Below, in pieces: positions 9,622 through 19,590 of a DNA stretch of 26,854 bases (positions within the stretch are counted from its first letter, which is position 1; each line of letters opens with the position of its first letter). The notes beneath the pieces are model-generated. The model worked only from the letters and a program-made list of their open reading frames with translations. It made no database searches and was not told the DNA's origin. Source of the DNA: Candidatus Omnitrophota bacterium (lineage in GTDB: Bacteria > Omnitrophota > Gorgyraeia > Gygaellales > Profunditerraquicolaceae). The position numbers and the translations under genes are program-made. The stretch lies in contig JAMWCL010000017.1 of NCBI GenBank assembly GCA_023819035.1, positions 1 through 26,854 of the forward strand, in the 5' to 3' direction.

Positions 9622-11195
9622 GGAAGATGAAGATAGAATTATACGATACCACTTTAAGGGATGGCGCCCAGACCGAAGGGATTTCTTATTCGGTAAATGA
9701 TAAGATTAGAATAGCCAAAGCCTTGGATGACTTAGGAATAAATTATATCGAAGGTGGATGGCCGGGTGCAAATCCAAAGGATTCAGAATTCTTTAAAAAG
9801 ATGAAGAGGATTAAATTAAAGAATTCAGAACTCTGTGCTTTTGGAGCAACTAGACATCCAAAAAAGAAAGTATATTTAGATCCAAACATTAGAGGAATCT
9901 TAGATTCAGGTACAAAGATTGTAACGATCTTTGGAAAATCCTGGGACCTACATGTAAGAGAAGTATTGAAGGTATCTTTAGAGGAGAATCTAAAATTAAT
10001 TTCTGAAAGTATCTCATATTTGAGATCTAAAGGAAGAGATGTGATCTTTGATGCAGAGCATTTCTTTGATGGCTATAAAGAAAATCCTAATTATGCATTG
10101 AAGACACTATTAGTTGCACAAGATTCTGGTGCAAAGACAATTGTTCTCTGTGATACAAATGGAGGGACATTGACAAAAGATATTTCAAAGATAATCTTTG
10201 AGATTAAACCAAAGATAGAAGTTCAGTTAGGAATCCACACACATAACGATTTAGATTTAGCAGTTGCAAATACATTAGCGGCTGTTGGAGCAGGATGCAC
10301 CCATATTCAGGGAACATTCAATGGTTATGGTGAGAGGTGTGGGAATGCAGATTTATGTACATTAACTGGGATATTAAAATTGAAAATGGGAATCGACTGT
10401 ATATCTATGGATAAATTAAAAAAGTTGACCGAGATCTCTTACCTTATATCTGAGATTTCAAATATGAAGCATTCTGATAATCAGCCATTTGTGGGTAGAT
10501 CTGCTTTTGCCCATAAAGGTGGAGTCCATATCGATGCAATGATTAAAAACCCTAAGACCTATGAGCATATCGAACCCCAGTTAGTGGGAAACCAGAGAAG
10601 ATTCTTAATCTCTGAGCTTGCAGGTAGAAGCCCAATTGTAATTACTGCTAAGGAATTAAAATTAGAGATTGATAAGAAATCTAAAAAGGCAAAAAAAATC
10701 TTTAAGCTTTTGCAAGACTTAGAACATCAGGGCTATTCTTTTGAGGTAGCGGATGCCTCTTTTAAATTAATCTTACAGAAAGAATTAAAAAAATTTAAGA
10801 AATTCTTTGAATTAGAGGGATTTCGGGTAATTGTGGAGAAAAGAAAAGATGAGCGTGTCTTTGCTGAAGCAACCATAAGGCTTAAAGTAAAAGGGAAAGA
10901 ACAATATACCGCTGCGGAAGGAGCCGGTCCGGTAAATGCCCTGGATAATGCCCTCAGAAAGGCATTGATTCAATTCTACCCTCAATTGACAAAAATGCAT
11001 CTATCTGACTTTAAAGTCCGCGTATTAGATGAAAAAGCAGGGACTGCAGCTAAAGTAAGAGTCCTGATTCAATCCCAGGATGAAAAAGAATCCTGGGGAA
11101 CAGTAGGTGTTTCAGAAAATATCATTGAGGCCTCCTGGCAGGCATTGATTGATAGTATTGAATATAAGTTATTAAAAGACAAAATAAATGCTTGA
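9618..11195 (+). CDS. cimA: (R)-citramalate synthase / 2-isopropylmalate synthase family (CimA-like, with LeuA-dimer regulatory domain)
   Basis: '[18 protein letters not shown]' HMGL-like TIM barrel with 'HTHND', plus a C-terminal LeuA allosteric domain. 525 aa. The alternative start at 9627 (MKIELYD) has the better SD (GAGGAAG). Confidence 0.8.
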
Positions 11196-11688
11196 TTATC
11201 TGGGAATTTTTAAGGAGTTTAATACAAAGAAAATAAAATATATTGTTGTGGGCGGTTTAGCAGTGAATTTTCACGGAATTCCACGCGCAACTTATGATAT
11301 AGATTTGTTAGTTTATCTGGAAGACAGAAACTTAGCCAAGCTTTTGAGATTAATGAAAGATTGGGGCTTTAAACCAAAGGTTCCTGTAGATATTATGGAC
11401 TTTGCTGATAGAAATAAAAGAGAAGATTGGATTAAGAATAAAAATATGAAAGCATTTACTCTTATTAATCCAGAATGGGCAATAAAAGAGATTGATATTA
11501 TAATCAATTCTCCTGTGGATTATAAAAAAGCTCTAAAGAATGCTAAAATTTTTAAAATATATAATGTGCCCATTCCTACTATATCAATAAATGACCTTAT
11601 TCTAATGAAGGAAAAAACTGGTAGAAGACAAGATGAGGCAGATATTAGGTACCTTAAAAAATTATTAAAAAATGAGAAGAGCAATTAA
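11188..11688 (+). CDS. minimal nucleotidyltransferase-fold protein (Pol-beta superfamily, DUF2204-like)
   Basis: 'IVVGGLAVNFHGIPRATYDIDLLV' gives the hG[GS]...DxD nucleotidyltransferase signature. C-terminal 'LILMKEKTGRRQDEADIRYL'. 166 aa. Confidence 0.5.
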   Translation: MLDYLGIFKEFNTKKIKYIVVGGLAVNFHGIPRATYDIDLLVYLEDRNLAKLLRLMKDWGFKPKVPVDIMDFADRNKREDWIKNKNMKAFTLINPEWAIKEIDIIINSPVDYKKALKNAKIFKIYNVPIPTISINDLILMKEKTGRRQDEADIRYLKKLLKNEKSN

Positions 11689-11863
11689 AGGTTTTGATTA
11701 TTATCTGGATTCTAAAATCATCCGTGAATATCAAAAAATTCCTATAGAAAAAAGGCTTATTTGGTTATACCAGTTAAATCTTTTAAGAAAAGGATATCCC
11801 AAAAGGATAATTGAACTTCAGGATAAGTTTCGGGAAGGAAAGATTCAACAAAAAGGTGGCTGA
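11672..11863 (+). CDS. small hypothetical protein (63 aa), possible partner of the nucleotidyltransferase
   Basis: ORF overlapping the upstream gene end by 17 nt. No motif. Basic. Confidence 0.3.
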   Translation: MRRAIKGFDYYLDSKIIREYQKIPIEKRLIWLYQLNLLRKGYPKRIIELQDKFREGKIQQKGG

Positions 11864-11866
11864 GAA

Positions 11867-12421
11867 ATGGTAATTAGATTAATTGATTTAGAAGATGGTA
11901 GAGTAATTAGTAATATTAATTTCGAAGATTTAAAAGTTTTAAAGGGATGTTTAGAAGAGGAGGGTCCAGATGATGTAGACTATTACATTGAAATGGAGAC
12001 TTTATCTCTTTTAAAAAATAAAGGACTAAATTTAGAGGTTTTTAGAGTATTGGAGGAAATTTTAAAAACAAGATCATCGATAAATATCGGTTGGGAACAG
12101 ATAAAAGAAGATGCTGAATATCATTTAAAAGGAAAACTTATCTGGGCATCAAATAGCTATCCAGCTACGGGATTAAAAATTGAAGCTTATGATAGGGATG
12201 TTATTTCAGATGATTTTTTAGGATGGAGTTTTTCTCATTCGAATGGTGAATTTGAAATATTTTTTAGCGAAAAAGATTTTAAAGATATTAGGGTAATCGA
12301 TATTGAGGGACCTCCTGAGATAATTTTAAAGATCTCAGATAAAGATAAAAAGGTTCTTTTAAAAACTCCTATAAGAGTTATGGCAGAAAAAACTTTAGAC
12401 TTTGGAGTTATTTTAGTTTAA
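11867..12421 (+). CDS. hypothetical protein with transthyretin-/carboxypeptidase-regulatory-like beta-sandwich C-terminal half
   Basis: 'GKLIWASNSYPATGLKIEAYDRDVISDDFLGWSFSHSNGEFEIFF' resembles the D-x-D...DD-LG...G-F pattern of TTR-like domains. 184 aa. Starts 4 nt after the previous stop. Confidence 0.45.
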   Translation: MVIRLIDLEDGRVISNINFEDLKVLKGCLEEEGPDDVDYYIEMETLSLLKNKGLNLEVFRVLEEILKTRSSINIGWEQIKEDAEYHLKGKLIWASNSYPATGLKIEAYDRDVISDDFLGWSFSHSNGEFEIFFSEKDFKDIRVIDIEGPPEIILKISDKDKKVLLKTPIRVMAEKTLDFGVILV

Positions 12422-12450
12422 TTTCGAATATAGAAGGAGAAAAAGAAAAA

Positions 12451-14520
12451 ATGGAGCGTATCTTAGATATGCAATGCCCAAATTGTAGAGATAAAGATCT
12501 ATATCGTGTTTTAACAAGACAAGGCGTAGAGGTAGATTACTGTAAAGAATGTGGAGGCATCTGGTTAGATAAGGGTGAAATTTATTATTTTACCAAGACT
12601 CCTGCCTATCTCAAACATAATATCGAAGAAGCTTTAAAGAATCAAAGAATTTCAGAAAAAATTTCACCCAAAACAAAACAACCTTTGGTAAGTATAACTC
12701 TATTTGATACACTTATAGTTGAATTTTGCCCAAAGACAGGTGGTATCTGGCTTGATAAAGGAGAATTAGAAAAATTACCTAGCATTGAAAAGAAGTCTTT
12801 AGATATAACTTTGGATAAAAAAATTGAAATTGAGGAAAGAGTTGAGATAGATATTGAGGAAGAAAGAAAAAGAAAGGAGAGAATTTCTGCGATTGAAGCA
12901 AGGATCAGTCCTTTACCAAATTTGATTGTTGCCTCAACTGTAACTTTAGCTGGACTTTATGCCCTTTTAACACTTATCCTCATCTTATGTGTTCAGTTTT
13001 TAGGACTTTCACCATTTTTTGCTTTAATTATTGGAATCTTGGTTGTTCTTTTTCATTTCCTTTTTGGTCCTTTTCTATTGGATTTATCTTTAAGTTTGTT
13101 CTTCAAATTATCTTGGATTAGATCTGAACAATTACCTTTACACTTGAAGAATTTTATCGAACGTATCTGCAAAGAAAAAAATATGCGTTTTCCGCGTATG
13201 GGTTTAATTCGTGATGGTTCTCCTCAAGCTTTTACCTATGGTCATCATCCTAATAATGCTAGAGTCGTAATCTCTCAAGGTTTAATTAACCTTTTAGATG
13301 AAAGGGAAGCCGAAGCAGTAGTTGCTCACGAGCTTGGTCATGCTAAACATTGGGATATGTTAATAATGACTTTAGCTCAACTTGTTCCTCTGGTCTCATA
13401 CTATATCTATCGAACATTGATAAGGGTTAGAACGAGAGAAAGAGATAGAGGAGCAGGTGCTCGTTATTTAATTGCTATTGGCTCATACATTCTTTATATC
13501 ATCTCTGAATATTTGGTTCTTTGGTTTTCCCGTATTAGAGAGTATTTTGCTGATAGATTTTCTGGTGAAGTTACCCAAGATCCCAATGTTTTGGCTTCTG
13601 CTTTGGTTAAGATTGGCTATGGTTTAGCCGGACAGAAATTAAAGGTAGAAAAAGAAGAACGCAGGCCTCAATTAGAGGTTAGGTATTTTTGATCGAAAGA
13701 CTGCTCTTAATTTAGTGATTTCAGGCTTCTCACCCCAAACAATGGGAGGTGAGATAAACAAAGATTTATTAAAAGAAGCAATGAAATGGGATTTATGGAA
13801 TCCCTGGGCAATTTATTATGAATTACATTCTACACATCCTTTGATTGCTAAAAGGTTAAATAGGTTGAGTGAGCAATCTGTATTTTTAGGAAAAGAACCC
13901 TATATTATCTTTGACCGCAGAAGACCTGAATCCTATTGGGATGAATTTTTTATAGATTTACTTATTAAATTTTTACCTTTAATTGCTCTCGTTGGGGGAA
14001 TATTTCTATTCTCACCAATCATTAAAATCAGTTCCTTAAGATTCTTAGGAGCCTTAGGAATTTCTTTTGGCTTTGGTTATTTAATTAACATTTTATTTTC
14101 CTATAAGAAGGTGAACCGTTTCCTGAATTCAGTATCTCAGGTCTCTTAAAAAAGGTAAAAGTCTCTTCAGTTAGACCTGTTCCTTGCACTTTAAGAGGTA
14201 GAATCATTGGTCGAGGGATTCCCGGTTTAATCTGGTCAGAAGATTTTGTTCTAAAAGATGATACAGGAATAATCTTTTTAGATTATCGCCAACCCTTAGG
14301 GATCTGGGAGTTCTTCTTCGGACTTTTGCGGGCAAAAGAATTTATTAACGAAGATGTAATTATAACTGGCTGGTATCGTAGATCACCAGTCCCTTATATT
14401 GAACTTAAAACCTTAAGAGATTCTCAGGGAAGATTAATGAGCTGTTATGTTTATTTGGTAAAATTAACTGTAGCAATCGGCTTGATTATTTTAGGAGTAG
14501 CCTTTGTTTTGTTATCGTAA
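12451..14520 (+). pseudogene. M48-family (HtpX-like) membrane zinc metalloprotease with N-terminal tandem zinc-ribbon (zf-TFIIB-like 'CGGIWLDKGE') domains; split into three frames by two frameshifts
   Basis: Segment 1 (12451-13692): 'CPNCRD...CKECGGIWLDKGE' twice, TM helices, 'HELGHAKHWD' HExxH, 'REYFADRF' third ligand. Segment 2 (frame 2, open from 13676; 13715-14149): 'ELHSTHPLIAKRLNRL' M48 C-terminal motif plus TM helices. Segment 3 (frame 1, open from 14107 to 14520). The frames overlap only over 13676-13689 (T5 run at 13686-13690) and 14107-14146. Confidence 0.6.
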
Positions 14521-15078: not shown

Positions 15079-15977
15079 ATGTATATGGGGTTTATCTTTG
15101 GATTTCTTTTGGTTATTTCAGGTTTGGCCTTTATTCTCACAAAGATGCGTCATCCGGACTACAATAAGACAACCAATCTTATTGGGTTGATCCTTATAAT
15201 AATTGCAATTCCAATAATAGTTTTTAGTTTTATCAGGATAGTACCTGCAGGAACTGTAGGGGTAGTTGACCTCTTTGGTAGGGTATCTGATATTGAAAGA
15301 CATCAGGACTAAATTTAGTAAATCCTTTTGCCAGATTAATTATTATGAATATTAAAACCGAAGAGATAAAGGAGACGATGGTTGTGCCTTCAAAAGAAGG
15401 CTTATCAGTAAGTTTGGATGTCTCAATATTGTATAGACTTGCACCTGAATTGGCAAGTGATATTTATAAAAGAGTTGGGGAAGGATATCGAGAGATTGCT
15501 ATCGTTCCCCAATTTCGCTCTGTATGTAGAGGTGTAACAGTCAATTATGAGGCAAAGGCTTTGTATACTTCTAGTCGTGAAGAGATTGCTTTAAAGATCT
15601 TTACTGATTTAGAAGCGATGCTTAAAGAGCGGGGTATTATTTTGGAAAGGGTGCTTTTAAGAGCGATCACTTTGCCTCCCACTGTATCGCAAGCAATTGA
15701 ACAGAAATTGAAGGCAGAGCAAGAGGCTGAACAGATGAAGTTTATTTTGGAAAAAGAGAAGAAAGAGGCGGAAAGAAAGATAATTGAGGCAGAAGGTATT
15801 GCTAAGGCACAGGAGATAATTGCTCAGAGGTTAACTGACAGGTATTTGACTTGGCGTTTTATGGAAAAGATTGAAGCCTTTGGGAAAGGTCAAAATAATT
15901 CGATTATATTATTACCTTATGACCAAAAGATACTTCCCTTAATTCAAGTTCCCGGTGAAAGAGAAGAAAAGAAATAA
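15079..15977 (+). pseudogene. SPFH/band-7 (prohibitin/HflC/QmcA-like) membrane protein, interrupted by a single frameshift
   Basis: 15079-15312 encodes a TM helix plus 'IVPAGTVGVVDLFGRVSD'. A frame open from 15297 encodes 'SGLNLVNPFARLIIMNIKTEEIKETMVVPSKEGLSVSLDVSILYRL...' (SPFH core) and a coiled-coil tail. One extra A in the run at 15296-15298 would fuse them into a protein of about 290 aa. Confidence 0.7.
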
Positions 15978-16118
15978 GAGATATGAATATTATGATATAA
16001 TAATTACCAAAGAAGGAGATATTCTCATACAACCTTATGGCAAGCTTCTAAATTCTCTGATTAAGAGGTTTGGACTTTCTGAAATAAATCTCAAGATAAG
16101 TAGATTCTGTGGATAAAT

Positions 16119-17687
16119 ATGGGAAATTTTAAATCTCAATGCGAGAAAGAGATTGACCTCTTAATTCGGGCAAGATACCCTTTGCTCTATATAGTTAGCT
16201 ATGAGGAAGAGAGGGTTTCAAACCTCTTATCTAAATTGGCGAATGAGAGGAATAAACAATTCTTTATTTGGACTACTACTTGTGGAATACATAAATTCGA
16301 GGAATTAAGTAGACCTGAGCAGCCTTTAAAAGTAGATGAGCAGACAAGAGATCCTCTAAATATCTTAAATCATATTGAGAGGCAACCCTATCCCGCCATA
16401 TTTTTATTAAAAGACTTTCATCCCTTTTTATCCGACCATACTGTCGTAAGAAAACTGCGTGATTTAGTTGAGAATCTAAAGCAGACCTATGAGACGATTG
16501 TAATCTTGTCTCCAATTTTAAATGTTCCGGTTGAATTGGAGAAAGACATAGTAGTAGTTGACTTTGAATTACCAAATAAAGAAGATTTAAATCAACTTTT
16601 AAATGAAATCATTGAAGTAGTAAGTAAATCTGGAGAGGTCAAGATTAATCTTGATTCAGAAACAAGAGAAAAACTGATCTCTGCTGCTTTAGGTCTTACT
16701 TTAACTGAAGCAGAGAATGCTTTTGCTCGGAGTATCGTTGTAGATAAATCCTTGGGTCCTGAAGATGTTGAGAAGATTTTAGCGGAAAAAGAGCAGGTAA
16801 TTAGAAAATCTGGAATCTTAGAGTATTATCATCCAGCTGAAAAATTGGAAGATATTGGAGGTCTAAATTCTCTTAAAGACTGGCTCATTAAGCGTTCAGT
16901 TGGTTTTACTGAAAAGGCAAAGGAATTTGGTCTTCCTGAGCCAAAGGGAATATTATTGATTGGGGTTCAGGGTTGTGGAAAGAGTTTAACTGCAAAAGCA
17001 ATCTCTTCATTCTGGAAATTGCCTTTATTAAGATTTGATGTAGGAAGGGTTTTCTCTGGAATTGTTGGTTCATCAGAAGAGAATATGCGCAAAGCAATAA
17101 GGATTGCTGAATCCGTAGCACCTGTAATCTTATGGATCGATGAGATAGAAAAGTCTTTATCTGGAGTTCAGAGTTCAGGTTTCTCCGATGCGGGAACTTC
17201 TGCCAGAGTATTCTCTACATTTTTAACCTGGCTTCAGGAGAAGAAGAAACCTGTATTTGTGGTCTCTACAGCAAATAATATCTCGCTTTTGCCTCCTGAA
17301 CTCTTGAGAAAGGGAAGATTTGATGAGATATTCTTTGTGGACTTACCGAATTTTGAAGAGAGAAAAGAGATCTTCTCTATCCATCTTAAAAAGAGAAAAA
17401 GAGACCCTAAAAATTATGATTTAGAAATTTTGGCAAGAGAATCTGAGGGCTATTCAGGTGCAGAGATTGAACAGGCAGTAATCTCTGCTCTATTTGATGC
17501 CTTTGTGGAGAAAAGAGATATTAATACTGAAGATATATTAAGAAATCTCAAAAGCAGTATTCCTCTCTCTCAGACAATGAGAGAAGATATCCAAGCTTTA
17601 AGAGATTGGGCAAGGACACGTGCAAGACCAGCAAGCCTCCCAGAAAAAGAAGTCTTGAGAACTAAAGAGAGAAAGATAGAATTGTAA
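16119..17687 (+). CDS. AAA+ ATPase, Ycf46-like (N-terminal domain + AAA module with unusual P-loop 'GVQGCGKS')
   Basis: Walker A 'GILLIGVQGCGKSLTAKA', Walker B 'VILWIDEIEK', arginine finger region 'GRFDEIFFVDLP'. The 'LPLLRFDVGRVFSGIVGSSEENMR' block is remembered as characteristic of Ycf46-family ATPases. 522 aa. Confidence 0.8.
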   Translation: MGNFKSQCEKEIDLLIRARYPLLYIVSYEEERVSNLLSKLANERNKQFFIWTTTCGIHKFEELSRPEQPLKVDEQTRDPLNILNHIERQPYPAIFLLKDFHPFLSDHTVVRKLRDLVENLKQTYETIVILSPILNVPVELEKDIVVVDFELPNKEDLNQLLNEIIEVVSKSGEVKINLDSETREKLISAALGLTLTEAENAFARSIVVDKSLGPEDVEKILAEKEQVIRKSGILEYYHPAEKLEDIGGLNSLKDWLIKRSVGFTEKAKEFGLPEPKGILLIGVQGCGKSLTAKAISSFWKLPLLRFDVGRVFSGIVGSSEENMRKAIRIAESVAPVILWIDEIEKSLSGVQSSGFSDAGTSARVFSTFLTWLQEKKKPVFVVSTANNISLLPPELLRKGRFDEIFFVDLPNFEERKEIFSIHLKKRKRDPKNYDLEILARESEGYSGAEIEQAVISALFDAFVEKRDINTEDILRNLKSSIPLSQTMREDIQALRDWARTRARPASLPEKEVLRTKERKIEL

Positions 17688-18388
17688 TGAAGAAAAGACG
17701 ATTCCAGAGATTAGAACTTTCTTCTTTACTCAGTGTATTTAAAAGACCAAAGATAGAATTGAAGCGATTTGAAAAGTTAGAGGTTGATGGCCATAAGATT
17801 GAGATAAAGATAACTGAAGAGAAAAGAAAATATAAAGCATGTCCAAAATGTCAGAGGAATAATCCAAAAGATAGTTTATACTGTCTATATTGCAATTATA
17901 TATTTGAGGATATTGCTGAGGAAGTCAAAGGAGTAGAGTTAGAACCTTGGCAGATAAAATGTCCTGGTTGCGGAAAAATTAGACCTCGGACAGAAAAATA
18001 TTGTCTTTACTGTGGCTGGAGGATTTCTCCTTTAAGTGAGGAGGAAACAAAAATCTCTCCTGAGTTTTTAAGAGAGAAGACTGGACAGAGATTATTAAGT
18101 CAAGGTGAGGTGATTAATTTAACCATTGATGGAAAGACTTATCGTTCAACAGATAAGAATATCCCTCCAGATATAAAAGAACTGATGCTAAAGATAAAAG
18201 AAGAAGGTTATTCAAAAGAGATGATTGATGAATGGGTAAAGAAAAAGAATATTGAGAAAGAATTAAAAAGAAGAGATTTAGAAGAGAGGATATATGAATT
18301 GAGATGGCAGGTCTTCTGGAGAGCATTAGGATTTATTGGTTTAATTTTGTTTTTGATATTTTATATTTGGTTGAGGGTAAGATTTTAG
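17687..18388 (+). CDS. double zinc-ribbon protein with C-terminal transmembrane anchor
   Basis: 'CPKCQRNNPKDSLYCLYCNY' and 'CPGCGKIRPRTEKYCLYCGW' (two CxxC-x11-CxxC ribbons). C-terminal 'ALGFIGLILFLIFYIWL' helix. Start overlaps the ATPase stop (TAATGA). 233 aa. Confidence 0.65.
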   Translation: MKKRRFQRLELSSLLSVFKRPKIELKRFEKLEVDGHKIEIKITEEKRKYKACPKCQRNNPKDSLYCLYCNYIFEDIAEEVKGVELEPWQIKCPGCGKIRPRTEKYCLYCGWRISPLSEEETKISPEFLREKTGQRLLSQGEVINLTIDGKTYRSTDKNIPPDIKELMLKIKEEGYSKEMIDEWVKKKNIEKELKRRDLEERIYELRWQVFWRALGFIGLILFLIFYIWLRVRF

Positions 18389-18400
18389 CCGGAGGAGGTT

Positions 18401-18790
18401 ATGTCTTCAACTGGAGGCATTGAATTGATTATCAGGAGTTTAGCTTCTTTACTCCAAGCAATTGGTGATTTAAGATTAGCTTGTGAAGAGAAGAAAGAGA
18501 TGCAGACTACAGATGGAAAGATTTATAATGTAGATGTGGTAGTTAAAGATGAGAATAATCGTTCAATTGGTTTTCAGAAGCAGAAGGATGGGAGTTATAG
18601 GATTATTGCTGATTCTTATGGACTTAATTCTGCACAACTAAAGAAACAGCAGGAATTTATCAACAAAATAAAAAGACGCTATGCTTATAATATGGTGATT
18701 GACCAATTAAAGAAACAGGGATATCAGATTTCTGAAGAGAAAATAGAGAAAGATACCATAAAATTAATTGGCCGCAGATGGGTTGCCTAA
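18401..18790 (+). CDS. DUF1257-like small protein
   Basis: 'MSSTGGIELIIRSLASLLQAIGDLRLACEE...' resembles the MS-x5-I-x3-L-x2-L-x2-AL-x-DL N-terminus recalled for DUF1257. SD GGAGGAGG. 129 aa. Confidence 0.55.
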   Translation: MSSTGGIELIIRSLASLLQAIGDLRLACEEKKEMQTTDGKIYNVDVVVKDENNRSIGFQKQKDGSYRIIADSYGLNSAQLKKQQEFINKIKRRYAYNMVIDQLKKQGYQISEEKIEKDTIKLIGRRWVA

Positions 18791-18834
18791 TCTTTGGAGC
18801 TGAGACCTCCGAATATATTGTAAAGTAAGGAGTT

Positions 18835-19038
18835 ATGGCAAGAAAAGAAGAGATTGAGATCTTAATCTCTGAAGATGGTTTTATAAAATTTCATATTAAA
18901 GGAATAAAGGGTCCAAAGTGCTTGGATTTGGCTAAAGTAGTAGGAAAGCCTTTAGGAGAGTTAAAAGATGTTAATTTAACTTCAGAATATTATGAAAAAG
19001 AAATAATAAAAGAGAAAGCTAAACAAAAAATTAAATAA
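18835..19038 (+). CDS. DUF2997-like small protein
   Basis: 'ISEDGFIKFHIKGIKGPKCLDLAKVVGKPLGELKDVNLTSEYY' matches the G-x-x-C...LG...T-x-EYY pattern recalled for DUF2997. SD AAGGAG. 67 aa. Confidence 0.55.
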   Translation: MARKEEIEILISEDGFIKFHIKGIKGPKCLDLAKVVGKPLGELKDVNLTSEYYEKEIIKEKAKQKIK

Positions 19039-19065: not shown

Positions 19066-19105
19066 GCACAAAATAAGCATTGCTTAAAATGTGCAGATGG
19101 TTTTT
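19066..19105 (+). terminator. candidate intrinsic terminator after the AAA/DUF operon
   Basis: Nested inverted repeat GCACA(19066-19070)...AAGCA-T-TGCTT(19075-19085)...TGTGC(19090-19094), followed by a T5 run (19101-19105). Imperfect stem. Confidence 0.3.
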
Positions 19106-19232: not shown

Positions 19233-19295
19233 ATGAGTAATTTTAAATCTCAATGTGAATTTGAATATGAACATAAAAAAGAAATCTTTATTTAG
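19233..19295 (+). repeat. duplicated 5' fragment of the AAA ATPase gene (remnant ORF MSNFKSQCEFEYEHKKEIFI*)
   Basis: 'ATGAGTAATTTTAAATCTCAATGTGAA' versus the gene start at 16119 'ATGGGAAATTTTAAATCTCAATGCGAG'. An identical 17-mer AATTTTAAATCTCAATG. The peptide MSNFKSQCE matches MGNFKSQCE. Confidence 0.5.
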
Positions 19296-19467
19296 AAAAA
19301 TTAAAGAATTTAGTATTAAGTCTATTAAAAGATGAGCCACTTAAGGTCTTTTTCTTTGGTTCTCGAGCAAGGAAAGACTGCATATTCAATCTGATGTGGA
19401 TATAGGATTATTCCCTATGGAAAGATTAGATTTAAGATTTAAAGACTTTGGAAGAGATATTAAATAA
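19277..19467 (+). pseudogene. MNT-type nucleotidyltransferase (HEPN/MNT toxin-antitoxin family) remnant, start lost and frameshifted
   Basis: Frame a gives '...LKDEPLKVFFFGSRARKDCIFN' (stop at 19403). The next frame gives 'SDVDIGLFPMERLDLRFKDFGRDIK*' (stop 19465-19467). Together they form the LFGSxARG...SDxDIxx signature, but there is no start codon. Confidence 0.5.
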
Positions 19468-19590
19468 ACCATTTAGGCGGAATGAGACTTTGTATACGTA
19501 TCGGGAAGAAGTCGCACAAAAAATCTATGATGCTATTAAAAATTATTACTCTTTGATGGAGAGAATCCTCAATAAATTTAAAGATAAGTT

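Follow-up and report, generated by a model that had tools for sequence, protein, structure and literature searches.

A conserved five-gene operon around a Ycf46-family AAA+ ATPase in Omnitrophota and a candidate terminal peptide linking the ATPase to its neighbors

Introduction

The closest described counterpart of the locus analyzed here is the Ycf46 ATPase of cyanobacteria and plastids (slr0374, Synpcc7942_0417), which is encoded in a three-gene stress operon. To our knowledge, Ycf46 and Ycf35 (DUF1257) are both conserved "hypothetical chloroplast ORFs" to which no molecular function is attached. ATPases of the Ycf46 type are spread across many bacterial phyla and phages. Cyanobacteria also carry a DUF2997-ycf35(DUF1257)-fed7 cluster, in which the two small families lie side by side with a ferredoxin (PMC4284462).

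Here, we analyze a 26,854-nucleotide stretch of contig JAMWCL010000017.1 from a Candidatus Omnitrophota bacterium (hereafter the window). It contains a real and conserved five-gene operon around a Ycf46-type ATPase, whose co-directional plus-strand genes encode, in order, a 53-aa protein, the ATPase, a zinc-ribbon protein, a DUF1257 protein and a DUF2997 protein. The membrane anchor encoded in the operon, together with a terminal peptide shared among neighbors of the ATPase, makes an "unknown AAA+" open to direct test, by asking what binds the peptide and what becomes of the proteins that carry it.

The window cassette and the cyanobacterial ycf46 loci have much in common: the ATPases are orthologs with the same dead-plus-active AAA layout and the same P-loop, G-V-x-G-C-G-K-S, and in both cases a DUF1257 gene follows the ATPase gene and a small gene precedes it. 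Unlike the window, however, cyanobacterial ycf46 loci have neither a zinc-ribbon/TM gene, nor a neighbor tagged with the peptide RFxxLE, nor an adjacent DUF2997 gene. Their upstream gene, which encodes an RHH-like protein ending in ..GELVPC, has no detectable kinship to the Omnitrophota 53-aa ORF, and none to DUF2997 was found either. The DUF2997-ycf35-fed7 cluster differs from the window in containing a ferredoxin gene rather than an ATPase gene and in its opposite gene order; no ferredoxin gene is present in the window.

Results

An original prediction, made by reading the window alone, had described a four-gene operon. All four genes were recovered on the plus strand where it had placed them (Table 1), with products of 522 aa (ATPase), 233 aa (zinc-ribbon protein), 129 aa (DUF1257) and 67 aa (DUF2997), but four does not hold as a total, since a fifth conserved ORF of 53 aa precedes the ATPase gene. 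The junctions, read directly from the sequence, are as described: a 1-nt TAATG overlap followed by gaps of 12 and 44 nt. A Shine-Dalgarno sequence had been proposed for every gene; those of the DUF1257 gene (GGAGGAGG) and the DUF2997 gene (AAGGAG) are strong, whereas those of the ATPase and zinc-ribbon genes are weak, and the starts of these latter two genes appear instead to be coupled to the stop codon that comes before them. The proposed terminator does consist of a hairpin followed by a U-run, but it is weak and A/U-rich and was missed by a consensus scan. Between positions 14000 and 19700, we found no Rfam family, no tRNA and no convincing promoter or terminator. No gene for a protease or other effector is present within the window cassette.

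Table 1. Positions of the cassette genes and of their sequence features in the window.
Feature	Position	Strand	Remarks
Small conserved ORF, 53 aa	15955..16116	+	GTG start; ends 2 nt before ATPase start
Ycf46-family AAA+ ATPase, 522 aa	16119..17687	+	49% identity to named Ycf46; Pfam AAA and AAA_lid_3
Degenerate N-terminal AAA+ domain, residues 1-233	16119..16817	+	No Walker A or B
Walker A GVQGCGKS, residues 282-289	16962..16985	+	Invariant in family alignment
Walker B ILWIDE, residues 337-342	17127..17144	+	Sole Walker B
Conserved ATPase C-terminal tail R-K-I-E-L-COOH	17670..17684	+	
Predicted tail-anchored protein with two candidate tags and two zinc ribbons, 233 aa	17687..18388	+	Pfam DZR; alignments
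Candidate tag copy 1, RFQRLE, residues 5-10	17699..17716	+	
Candidate tag copy 2, RFEKLE, residues 27-32	17765..17782	+	
Candidate tag peptides of the zinc-ribbon protein, MKKRRFQRLELSS and IELKRFEKLEVDG			
Zinc ribbon 1, CPKC...CLYC, residues 52-70	17840..17896	+	Four Cys invariant
Zinc ribbon 2, CPGCG...CLYCG, residues 92-110	17960..18016	+	Cys invariant
Central domain IDGKxYxSxDxxxPPDI...GYSKE...W, residues ~143-185	18113..18241	+	Conserved
Predicted C-terminal transmembrane helix, residues 213-231 of 233	18323..18379	+	Kyte-Doolittle 19-residue maximum 2.31
DUF1257 protein, 129 aa, Ycf35-related	18401..18790	+	
Stem-loop in DUF1257-DUF2997 spacer	18793..18813	+	
DUF2997 protein, 67 aa	18835..19038	+	Pfam 7.7e-11
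Possible terminator, weak hairpin plus U-run	19066..19105	+	MFE z = -1.6

The assignment of the ATPase to the Ycf46 family proved correct. Its residues 9-506 align to residues 2-491 of a Leptolyngbya protein (P0139) named "stress-responsive protein Ycf46" or "AAA domain-containing protein ycf46" in NCBI/UniRef, with 49% identity over 500 residues, N-domain included, and this full-length alignment shows it, at the level of sequence, to be a Ycf46 ortholog. The ATPase has more than 8000 relatives and is highly conserved throughout whole phyla. Pfam AAA (1.6e-28) covers residues 278-408 and AAA_lid_3 (3.1e-7) residues 433-471. A closer kinship with FtsH or CDC48 was not supported: the CDC48, PAN and FtsH models match the AAA core alone and score far under their cut-offs, and p97 in the PDB matches residues 240-457 only. 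The unusual P-loop to which the original prediction had drawn attention is the sole Walker A motif of the protein, and the LPLLRFDVGRVFSGIVGSSEENMR block that it quoted lies in the ATPase and is largely invariant across the family.

The active domain belongs to the classical clade of AAA+ domains, has an invariant Phe in its pore loop and finds its nearest sequence match in p97 D2 (1e-55). Since the N-terminal half is itself a degenerate AAA+ domain, the ATPase combines two AAA domains in tandem, the first dead and the second active. Two AAA folds per chain, one of them with Walker motifs, are likewise found in NSF, Pex1/Pex6, FtsHi and p97 relatives, from which the window ATPase differs in its inactive-then-active order, its size of ~520 aa, its cofactors and its lack of a separate N-terminal substrate-binding domain. 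By structure, the N-domain best matches Vps4, which, like CdvC, is of the classical clade; in place of an MIT domain, however, the window ATPase has the degenerate AAA fold. No ESCRT-III/PspA Pfam match was found among the neighbors. The conserved C-terminal tail of the ATPase (h-[DE]-h-COOH) co-occurs with an adjacent DUF1257 gene in cellular loci (28/4/4/25, Fisher 4e-9), whereas the association is reversed in viral contigs (7/14/25/15). Because of this reversal, the idea that the tail is a docking site for DUF1257/DUF2997 was considered and dropped.

The zinc-ribbon protein matches Pfam DZR (PF12773) over residues 52-110 (5.5e-8, 33.3 bits, cut-off 27.3), and alignments identify eight invariant Cys across its two ribbons. 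Its central domain matches no Pfam family and is present in one or two copies in the wider family of related proteins, which extends beyond ~30 full-length cluster representatives. The position of the C-terminal transmembrane helix is kept in the alignment, and Kyte-Doolittle analysis detected no other hydrophobic segment; the protein is predicted to be a tail-anchored membrane protein with its N-terminal bulk in the cytosol. It evolves faster than the ATPase (40-65% versus 57-80% identity). Outside the ribbon or tag, it is not homologous to the zinc-ribbon/TM protein of PVC loci or to a TPR protein.

For the two downstream genes, assignment to DUF1257 and DUF2997 was borne out by significant Pfam matches. 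The first product matches PF06868 at 1.7e-21 (76.8 bits, cut-off 22.2) over profile positions 1-99 of 103, and the second matches PF11211 over positions 1-47 of 47 (42.1 bits, cut-off 24.1) with the conserved pattern I..G...G.KG..C....G...TSEYYE. The structure model of the DUF1257 protein has a KA1/AMPK-alpha-CTD-like alpha+beta scaffold fold, a fold that binds partner strands. Essentially all Ycf35 proteins are reported to carry an N-terminal "MSH" motif (PMC13060386), which is absent from the window protein, starting MSSTGG. DUF1257 proteins of cyanobacteria and Myxococcota retain MSHF, and those of Omnitrophota and PVC have MS followed by a hydrophobic stretch. The window protein belongs to DUF1257 without being a canonical Ycf35.

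The 53-aa ORF lies directly 5' of the ATPase gene in all Omnitrophota loci, its residues having diverged to 34-42% identity around the motif Y-x-x-I-x-I-x-x-x-G-x-I-x-h-x-P and a C-terminal [FY]CG-stop. It carries no annotation in the public record and matched nothing in Pfam or PHROG. Profile comparison with hhalign gave 80-89% probability against DUF2997, for a hairpin-like region of only 14 columns, and only 28% between the small ORFs of Omnitrophota and Verrucomicrobiota.

Loci were compared through their stop-to-stop ORFs, which were searched with HMMs and clustered. The cassette genes are adjacent in every related Omnitrophota locus examined, in strict order and with tight translational coupling, although the flanking genes vary. 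In Omnitrophota, the cassette is vertically inherited within housekeeping synteny (leuA ... valS-nadC-uvrB, or dnaX-recR). That DUF1257 and DUF2997 travel with Ycf46-like ATPases, as had been proposed, is also apparent more widely: among 80 loci anchored on the ATPase and drawn from many phyla, ~40% have them adjacent, and in a DUF1257-anchored, hence seed-biased, sample the ATPase is present in 36 of the 37 well-flanked loci. Within 6 kb of the ATPase, about half of its loci lack both a tag and DUF genes. The original prediction had set the zinc-ribbon insertion apart from cyanobacterial loci. It is indeed absent from these but is common elsewhere, with genes for the AAA protein, the zinc-ribbon membrane protein, DUF1257 and DUF2997 following one another in this order across Omnitrophota and in two or more further lineages (loci L254 and L253, and L024 from Anaeromyxobacter, carry the insertion). 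In Anaeromyxobacter, the zinc-ribbon/TM protein is likewise tagged, and Planctopirus and Gimesia have a tagged TPR protein. Phages and viral contigs encode full-length ATPase homologs, often with DUF1257 and DUF2997. The neighbors of gp97 in Mycobacterium phage Catdawg are all hypothetical proteins.

The peptide RFxxLE is present in two N-terminal copies in the window zinc-ribbon protein. It recurs at the extreme N or C terminus of unrelated Ycf46-adjacent proteins, among them TPR, SNF2, SbcC-like and beta-propeller proteins, spanning at least seven unrelated architectures and at least six phyla. We observed 46 occurrences where 5.8 were expected, an approximately eight-fold enrichment; some of the proteins counted are homologs of one another, so that the occurrences lack phylogenetic independence. 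DUF1257 is also encoded in 20 of the 28 tagged loci; in eight tagged loci, several of them with 4-6 kb of flank, neither DUF1257 nor DUF2997 is nearby. RFxxLE is not universal to the family, since neither cyanobacterial-type loci nor viral contigs have an adjacent tagged gene, and in neither group is the tag enriched.

Discussion

The translationally coupled five-gene cassette may encode a remodelling machine of the Ycf46 family in which RFxxLE links the ATPase to a partner encoded by the adjacent gene, an interpretation that we consider evenly balanced. RFxxLE would serve as a handle at the protein terminus by which the hexameric ATPase recognizes and engages the protein encoded beside its gene, most likely by way of the conserved N-domain, with its nucleotide-free pocket (E29/E30/R32/D99/H101/R111/R114). 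Because the Omnitrophota partner is membrane-anchored, the ATPase would act on the cytoplasmic side of the membrane. As for the zinc-ribbon protein, it could be an anchor or adaptor for the ATPase, or else a client that is unfolded or extracted; DUF1257 and DUF2997 would serve as paired small cofactors without enzymatic activity, and the 53-aa protein might regulate the machine or be an additional subunit. The analogy to the ycf46 operon of cyanobacteria makes it probable that the module responds to stress. Among the roles suggested at the outset, our results favor a membrane-tethered remodelling module over a stress or defense function.

A broader proposal, which we put forward tentatively and with some doubt, is that RFxxLE could be a portable and hitherto unnoticed terminal tag defining the clientele of the Ycf46 family in bacteria at large, read by the degenerate N-domain with DUF1257 and DUF2997 as accessory adaptors. 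Recognition of a tag by the window ATPase, which we infer, would resemble the recruitment of Vps4/CdvC by short terminal peptides (MIT-MIM, ESCRT-III tails). It would also recall ssrA-ClpX and Pup-Mpa, in which short terminal peptides on diverse proteins are paired with an AAA+ motor bearing an aromatic pore loop; however, the cassette encodes no partner protease, and the tag, at one terminus or the other, is part of the neighboring genes themselves rather than added post-translationally. If a tag-and-motor reading is true, it would offer a first mechanistic handle on the long-orphan ycf46 and ycf35 genes, with a logic comparable to MIM/Vps4 or degron/Clp, as well as a new code by which AAA+ machines recognize substrates or adaptors, and a pointer to where Ycf46 clients lie in cyanobacteria and plastids.

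Candidate receptors of RFxxLE are the ATPase, the DUF proteins and the very proteins that carry it. We consider it unlikely that the peptide instead docks onto, or beta-strand-augments, DUF1257/DUF2997 or the 53-aa ORF product, or makes its carriers self-associate, so that adjacency to the ATPase would reflect no more than a shared pathway. The tag followed by G/D does resemble the first strand in both DUF2997 and the 53-aa protein (h-E-h-x-x-[DG]-G), and both the partner-strand binding known for the fold of DUF1257 and the frequency of DUF1257 in tagged loci are in line with such docking. Yet the eight tagged loci with neither DUF gene nearby argue against it, as do the DUF genes that occur without a tag in cyanobacterial and many viral loci.

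Quite unlikely, in our assessment, is an anti-phage or conflict system in which the AAA+ protein is a sensor or activator and its variable tagged neighbors (SNF2 helicase, SbcCD-like nuclease/ATPase, membrane zinc-ribbon protein) are effectors, as in other ATPase-plus-effector systems. Neighbors of the SNF2 and SbcC/SbcD type in other phyla, the homologs in phages and viral contigs, the methyltransferase and Mrr-like gene adjoining L254, and the rapid evolution of the variable slot filled by the zinc-ribbon protein all fit this reading. So does the resemblance of the AAA core to IetA of Ietas (IetA-IetS; PADLOC 2.3e-27), but this similarity is limited to ATPase residues ~264-500, an IetS protease is missing, and the score of 78 for the NCBIfam IteA model (5.9e-22) falls far short of its cut-off of 510. 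Searches of PADLOC and NCBIfam returned no system-level match to a catalogued anti-phage system, only AAA-core similarity; PADLOC has no model for the zinc-ribbon or DUF2997 protein, and its match to DUF1257 is marginal and unrelated (RT_UG5-nitrilase, E 0.0011). The Omnitrophota cassette, moreover, sits in vertically inherited housekeeping synteny rather than a defense island, the ATPase is conserved over whole phyla, and the cyanobacterial operon forms a core stress regulon.

In a further reading, the module would act as a general stress chaperone or disaggregase that lacks dedicated partners; the zinc-ribbon protein would be a DnaJ-like zinc-finger co-chaperone or just a membrane protein encoded nearby, and the motif a lineage-specific feature without a part in recognition. 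This reading would agree with the annotation of Ycf46 as stress-responsive, its induction by multiple stresses and the absence of conserved neighbors at about half of the ATPase loci, but is very unlikely given the strict, coupled gene order in Omnitrophota and the terminal enrichment of RFxxLE in unrelated proteins across phyla.

Operon layout and translation signals

The window spans a whole contig (26,854 bp) from a Candidatus Omnitrophica/Omnitrophota MAG. NCBI records under that name contain proteins 100% identical to its ATPase, zinc-ribbon, DUF1257 and DUF2997 products. The original prediction had placed these four ORFs exactly where we find them, and the sequence itself shows the junctions that it described: a 1-nt overlap, here TAATG, followed by spacers of 12 and 44 nt. 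Its domain assignments were borne out by Pfam, for which AAA and AAA_lid_3, DZR (double zinc ribbon), DUF1257 and DUF2997 all exceed gathering scores. A Shine-Dalgarno sequence had been claimed for every gene; strong ones precede DUF1257 and DUF2997 only, and for the ATPase and zinc-ribbon genes initiation appears to be coupled to the stop codons just before them. The proposed terminator exists as an A/U-rich hairpin, but it is weak (z = -1.6) and was not called by a consensus scan. No Rfam families or tRNAs were found in the cassette region. A stem-loop right behind the DUF1257 stop, in the DUF1257-DUF2997 spacer, may be a processing or attenuation element.

Features of the cassette and its surroundings in the window
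Feature	Position	Strand	Remarks
Three genes 5' of the cassette	11188-14149		DUF6036/AbiEii-like nucleotidyltransferase; 184-aa unknown protein; M48 peptidase with two TFIIB-type zinc ribbons
SPFH/Band-7, first piece	15079-15312		77-aa TM piece
SPFH/Band-7, second piece	15345-15977		210-aa piece; matches Band_7 profile positions 44-175 only
Small ORF	15955-16116	+	GTG start; 53 aa; stop 2 nt ahead of ATPase ATG
ATPase	16119-17687	+	Ycf46 family
Zinc-ribbon protein	17687-18388	+	DZR
DUF1257	18401-18790	+
DUF2997	18835-19038	+
Stem-loop	18793-18813		7-bp stem (TTTGGAGCTGAGACCTCCGAA)
MNT-type pseudogene	19262-19590		Decayed minimal nucleotidyltransferase

The ATPase and its conserved upstream gene

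The ATPase is a Ycf46 ortholog with one dead and one live AAA domain. As predicted, it belongs to the Ycf46 family, sharing 49% identity with the Leptolyngbya ortholog over 500 residues including the N-terminal region, whereas the similarity of CDC48, PAN and FtsH models and of p97 structures is confined to the AAA core. NCBI and UniRef name the Leptolyngbya protein 'stress-responsive protein Ycf46' and 'AAA domain-containing protein ycf46', and the literature treats Ycf46 as an uncharacterised stress-responsive ATPase. Scanning the ATPase alignment against one genome per species yielded 80 loci that align along nearly the whole protein at 48-64% identity; they belong to Omnitrophota, Armatimonadota, Verrucomicrobiota, Planctomycetota, Chloroflexota, Myxococcota, Cyanobacteria, Sumerlaeota, KSB1, Nitrospinota and others.

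In all related loci a gene of 54-67 aa is called directly 5' of the ATPase; L011, one of the loci compared (L-numbers denote loci from other genomes, metagenomes or viral contigs), also has it despite lacking a gene call. The window counterpart, whose start overlaps the 3' end of the SPFH/Band-7 gene, is unannotated in the public record and matched no family in Pfam or PHROG. Identity among these proteins falls to 34-42%, with Y-x-x-I-x-I-x-x-x-G-x-I-x-h-x-P and a terminal [FY]CG kept. The first hairpin of the window protein resembles the DUF2997 start (hhalign 80-89%, over only 14 profile columns), and in Verrucomicrobiota and L010 positional analogues with the related motif LLxLPDGxIL...LNPxD precede the ATPase. 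The cyanobacterial gene 5' of ycf46 is RHH-like, with a CxxC and an invariant C-terminal GEL[VI]xC-stop (L075, L080, L082, L086, L087, L089, L090); a C-terminal Cys is kept in both upstream mini-proteins, that of Omnitrophota ending in [FY]CG-stop. As far as we could find, this fifth gene, the pseudo-AAA N-domain of the ATPase and the terminal RFxxLE motif described below have not been described before.

A known neighbourhood with an inserted zinc-ribbon gene

Using neighbour HMMs seeded from Omnitrophota and iterated on all six-frame ORFs of the loci, we found that some 40% of the 80 loci have DUF1257 adjoining the ATPase, with DUF2997 nearly always next, in agreement with the expectation that both travel with Ycf46-like ATPases. 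They lie mostly downstream of the ATPase and sometimes upstream (L036, L050, L083), and both are missing beside the ATPase in Armatimonadota and in many Chloroflexota loci. Conversely, 36 of 37 well-flanked, DUF1257-anchored metagenome loci contain the ATPase, in a sample biased to operon-type seeds. Cyanobacterial loci run from the small upstream gene through Ycf46 to DUF1257, without DUF2997, which fits the stress-induced ycf46 operon of three genes in the literature; cyanobacteria also have a separate DUF2997-ycf35-fed7 cluster (PMC4284462). We found little literature on either DUF and no functional study. Every DUF1257 protein starts with MS, extended to MSHF, as described for Ycf35 (PMC13060386), in cyanobacterial and Myxococcota members, to MSS plus an amphipathic stretch in Omnitrophota, and to a hydrophobic N-terminus of ~30 residues in PVC members. 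DUF2997 keeps the pattern I..G...G.KG..C....G...TSEYYE.

A word-indexed search with the zinc-ribbon protein returned only 18 relatives (40-65% identity), and every one examined lies between ATPase and DUF1257, although the flanks vary (leuA...valS-nadC-uvrB in one set, dnaX-recR in another). Near the N-terminus, the family alignment has two RFxRLE motifs; then come two ribbons, with eight invariant Cys in all, the conserved domain (IDGKxYxSxDxxxPPDI...GYSKE...W) and, at the C-terminus, a TM helix. L009 has a homolog even though no DZR domain is detected there. An exhaustive profile search gave about 30 full-length cluster representatives and a wider group of the same design, with a pair of N-terminal tags, a single ribbon, the central domain once or twice and, often, a TM helix. 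The insertion is absent from cyanobacterial loci, as suspected, and recurs in several other lineages: L254 carries ATPase, paralog, a member of the wider group, DUF1257 and DUF2997 in order, L253 another such member followed by DUF1257, and Anaeromyxobacter L024 the ATPase, a protein with tag, ribbon and TM helix, then DUF1257 and DUF2997. The operon is a new variant of a gene neighbourhood already known but uncharacterised. The distant L254 tag/zinc-ribbon locus (1-1888) adjoins an N6/N4 DNA methyltransferase and an Mrr-like gene, a restriction-modification-like context in contrast to that of the window.

PVC loci (L025-L066, Planctomycetota/Verrucomicrobiota, and L010) have a radical-SAM enzyme, small ORF, ATPase, DUF1257 and DUF2997, followed by a zinc-ribbon multi-TM protein (~339 aa), an RFxxLEF-TPR protein and a PilT/T2SSE-like ATPase. 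This extended conserved neighbourhood suggests a larger membrane-associated system in that group.

A terminal RFxxLE tag on unrelated neighbours

Unexpectedly, the DZR HMM matched N-termini of Chloroflexota SNF2 helicases encoded directly after the ATPase ('ERFEWLEI' plus ribbon). Across roughly 85 ATPase loci, RFxxLE occurs 46 times on the ATPase strand against 5.8 expected from composition (shuffles: mean 4.7, maximum 12), and 6 times against 7.1 on the opposite strand. On the ATPase strand, 25 copies lie within 10 residues after Met and five within 3 residues of a stop, compared with two at such positions on the opposite strand. All six Arg and all six Leu codons occur at the motif positions, so the constraint acts on the protein. 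Orthologs are among the copies counted, which are not independent in phylogenetic terms; the stronger argument is the spread over architectures and phyla. The carriers are mutually unrelated: TPR proteins of Planctomycetota and Verrucomicrobiota ('MSRFGNLEF'), SNF2 helicases, an SbcC-like ATPase tagged C-terminally and preceded by an SbcD-like phosphoesterase, an Armatimonadota beta-propeller/TPR protein tagged C-terminally, Myxococcota proteins ending in 'RFSLLEFD', and zinc-ribbon/TM proteins. Within the window the zinc-ribbon protein is the only carrier. SbcD-like (Metallophos) and SbcC-like genes follow the ATPase in several lineages (L036, L050, L054, L055, L084), the L036 SbcC-like protein ending in ERFEKLEI-stop. 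Viral and cyanobacterial-type loci showed no RFxxLE enrichment.

Possible function

The sequences show the protein identities and domain architecture, a conserved gene order with coupling, and a tag that is enriched and sits at protein termini. Beyond this, we propose that the tag would act as a handle joining neighbouring proteins to the ATPase. It may instead dock onto DUF1257/DUF2997; eight tagged loci, however, lack DUF1257 nearby, and because the tag tracks the ATPase even without the DUF genes, the most economical reader would be the conserved, nucleotide-free N-domain. In Omnitrophota, the zinc-ribbon protein, with its two tags and tail anchor, would either bring the motor to the membrane or itself be the client, and DUF1257 and DUF2997 would serve together as small cofactors. 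The ATPase C-terminus is kept as R-[KR]-[LI]-E-[LF]-COOH; in the window protein it reads RKIEL, similar to the second half of the tag (RFx[RK]LE[FL]), which hints at competition or autoinhibition. This tail is associated with DUF1257 in cellular loci (28/4/4/25, p = 4e-9), an association reversed in viral contigs (7/14/25/15), where many ATPases end in R-x-L-D-[LIF].

Alternatively, the ATPase may act as a general chaperone under stress. SNF2 and SbcCD-like neighbours, a core similar to that of IetA and family members in phages suggest a role in defence, but vertical inheritance inside housekeeping synteny and partners without defence-model matches argue against it. Among cultured phages, 57 encode a full-length Ycf46-like ATPase (Mycobacterium Corndogvirus, Pseudomonas, Rhizobium and Rhodobacter phages; e.g. 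KF017002.1, Catdawg gp97), as do many large viral contigs (IMG/VR L172-L251); of 80 viral loci, 35 have DUF1257 and/or DUF2997 as well, and the phage occurrence extends to PHROG families of unknown function.

Surroundings of the cassette

A leuA-like gene lies directly 5' of the cassette in L001, L009 and L011 and about 4.7 kb away in the window (~11.2-15.95 kb). The intervening SPFH/Band-7 gene is seemingly split, which could reflect a frameshift, a pseudogene or an assembly error. Downstream, the 550-nt gap before valS holds the MNT-type pseudogene (frame 1 '...LKVFFFGSRARKD', a frameshift, then 'SDVDIGLFPMERLDL...' with stops), an insertion remnant given that valS follows DUF2997 by ~10-25 nt in related loci.
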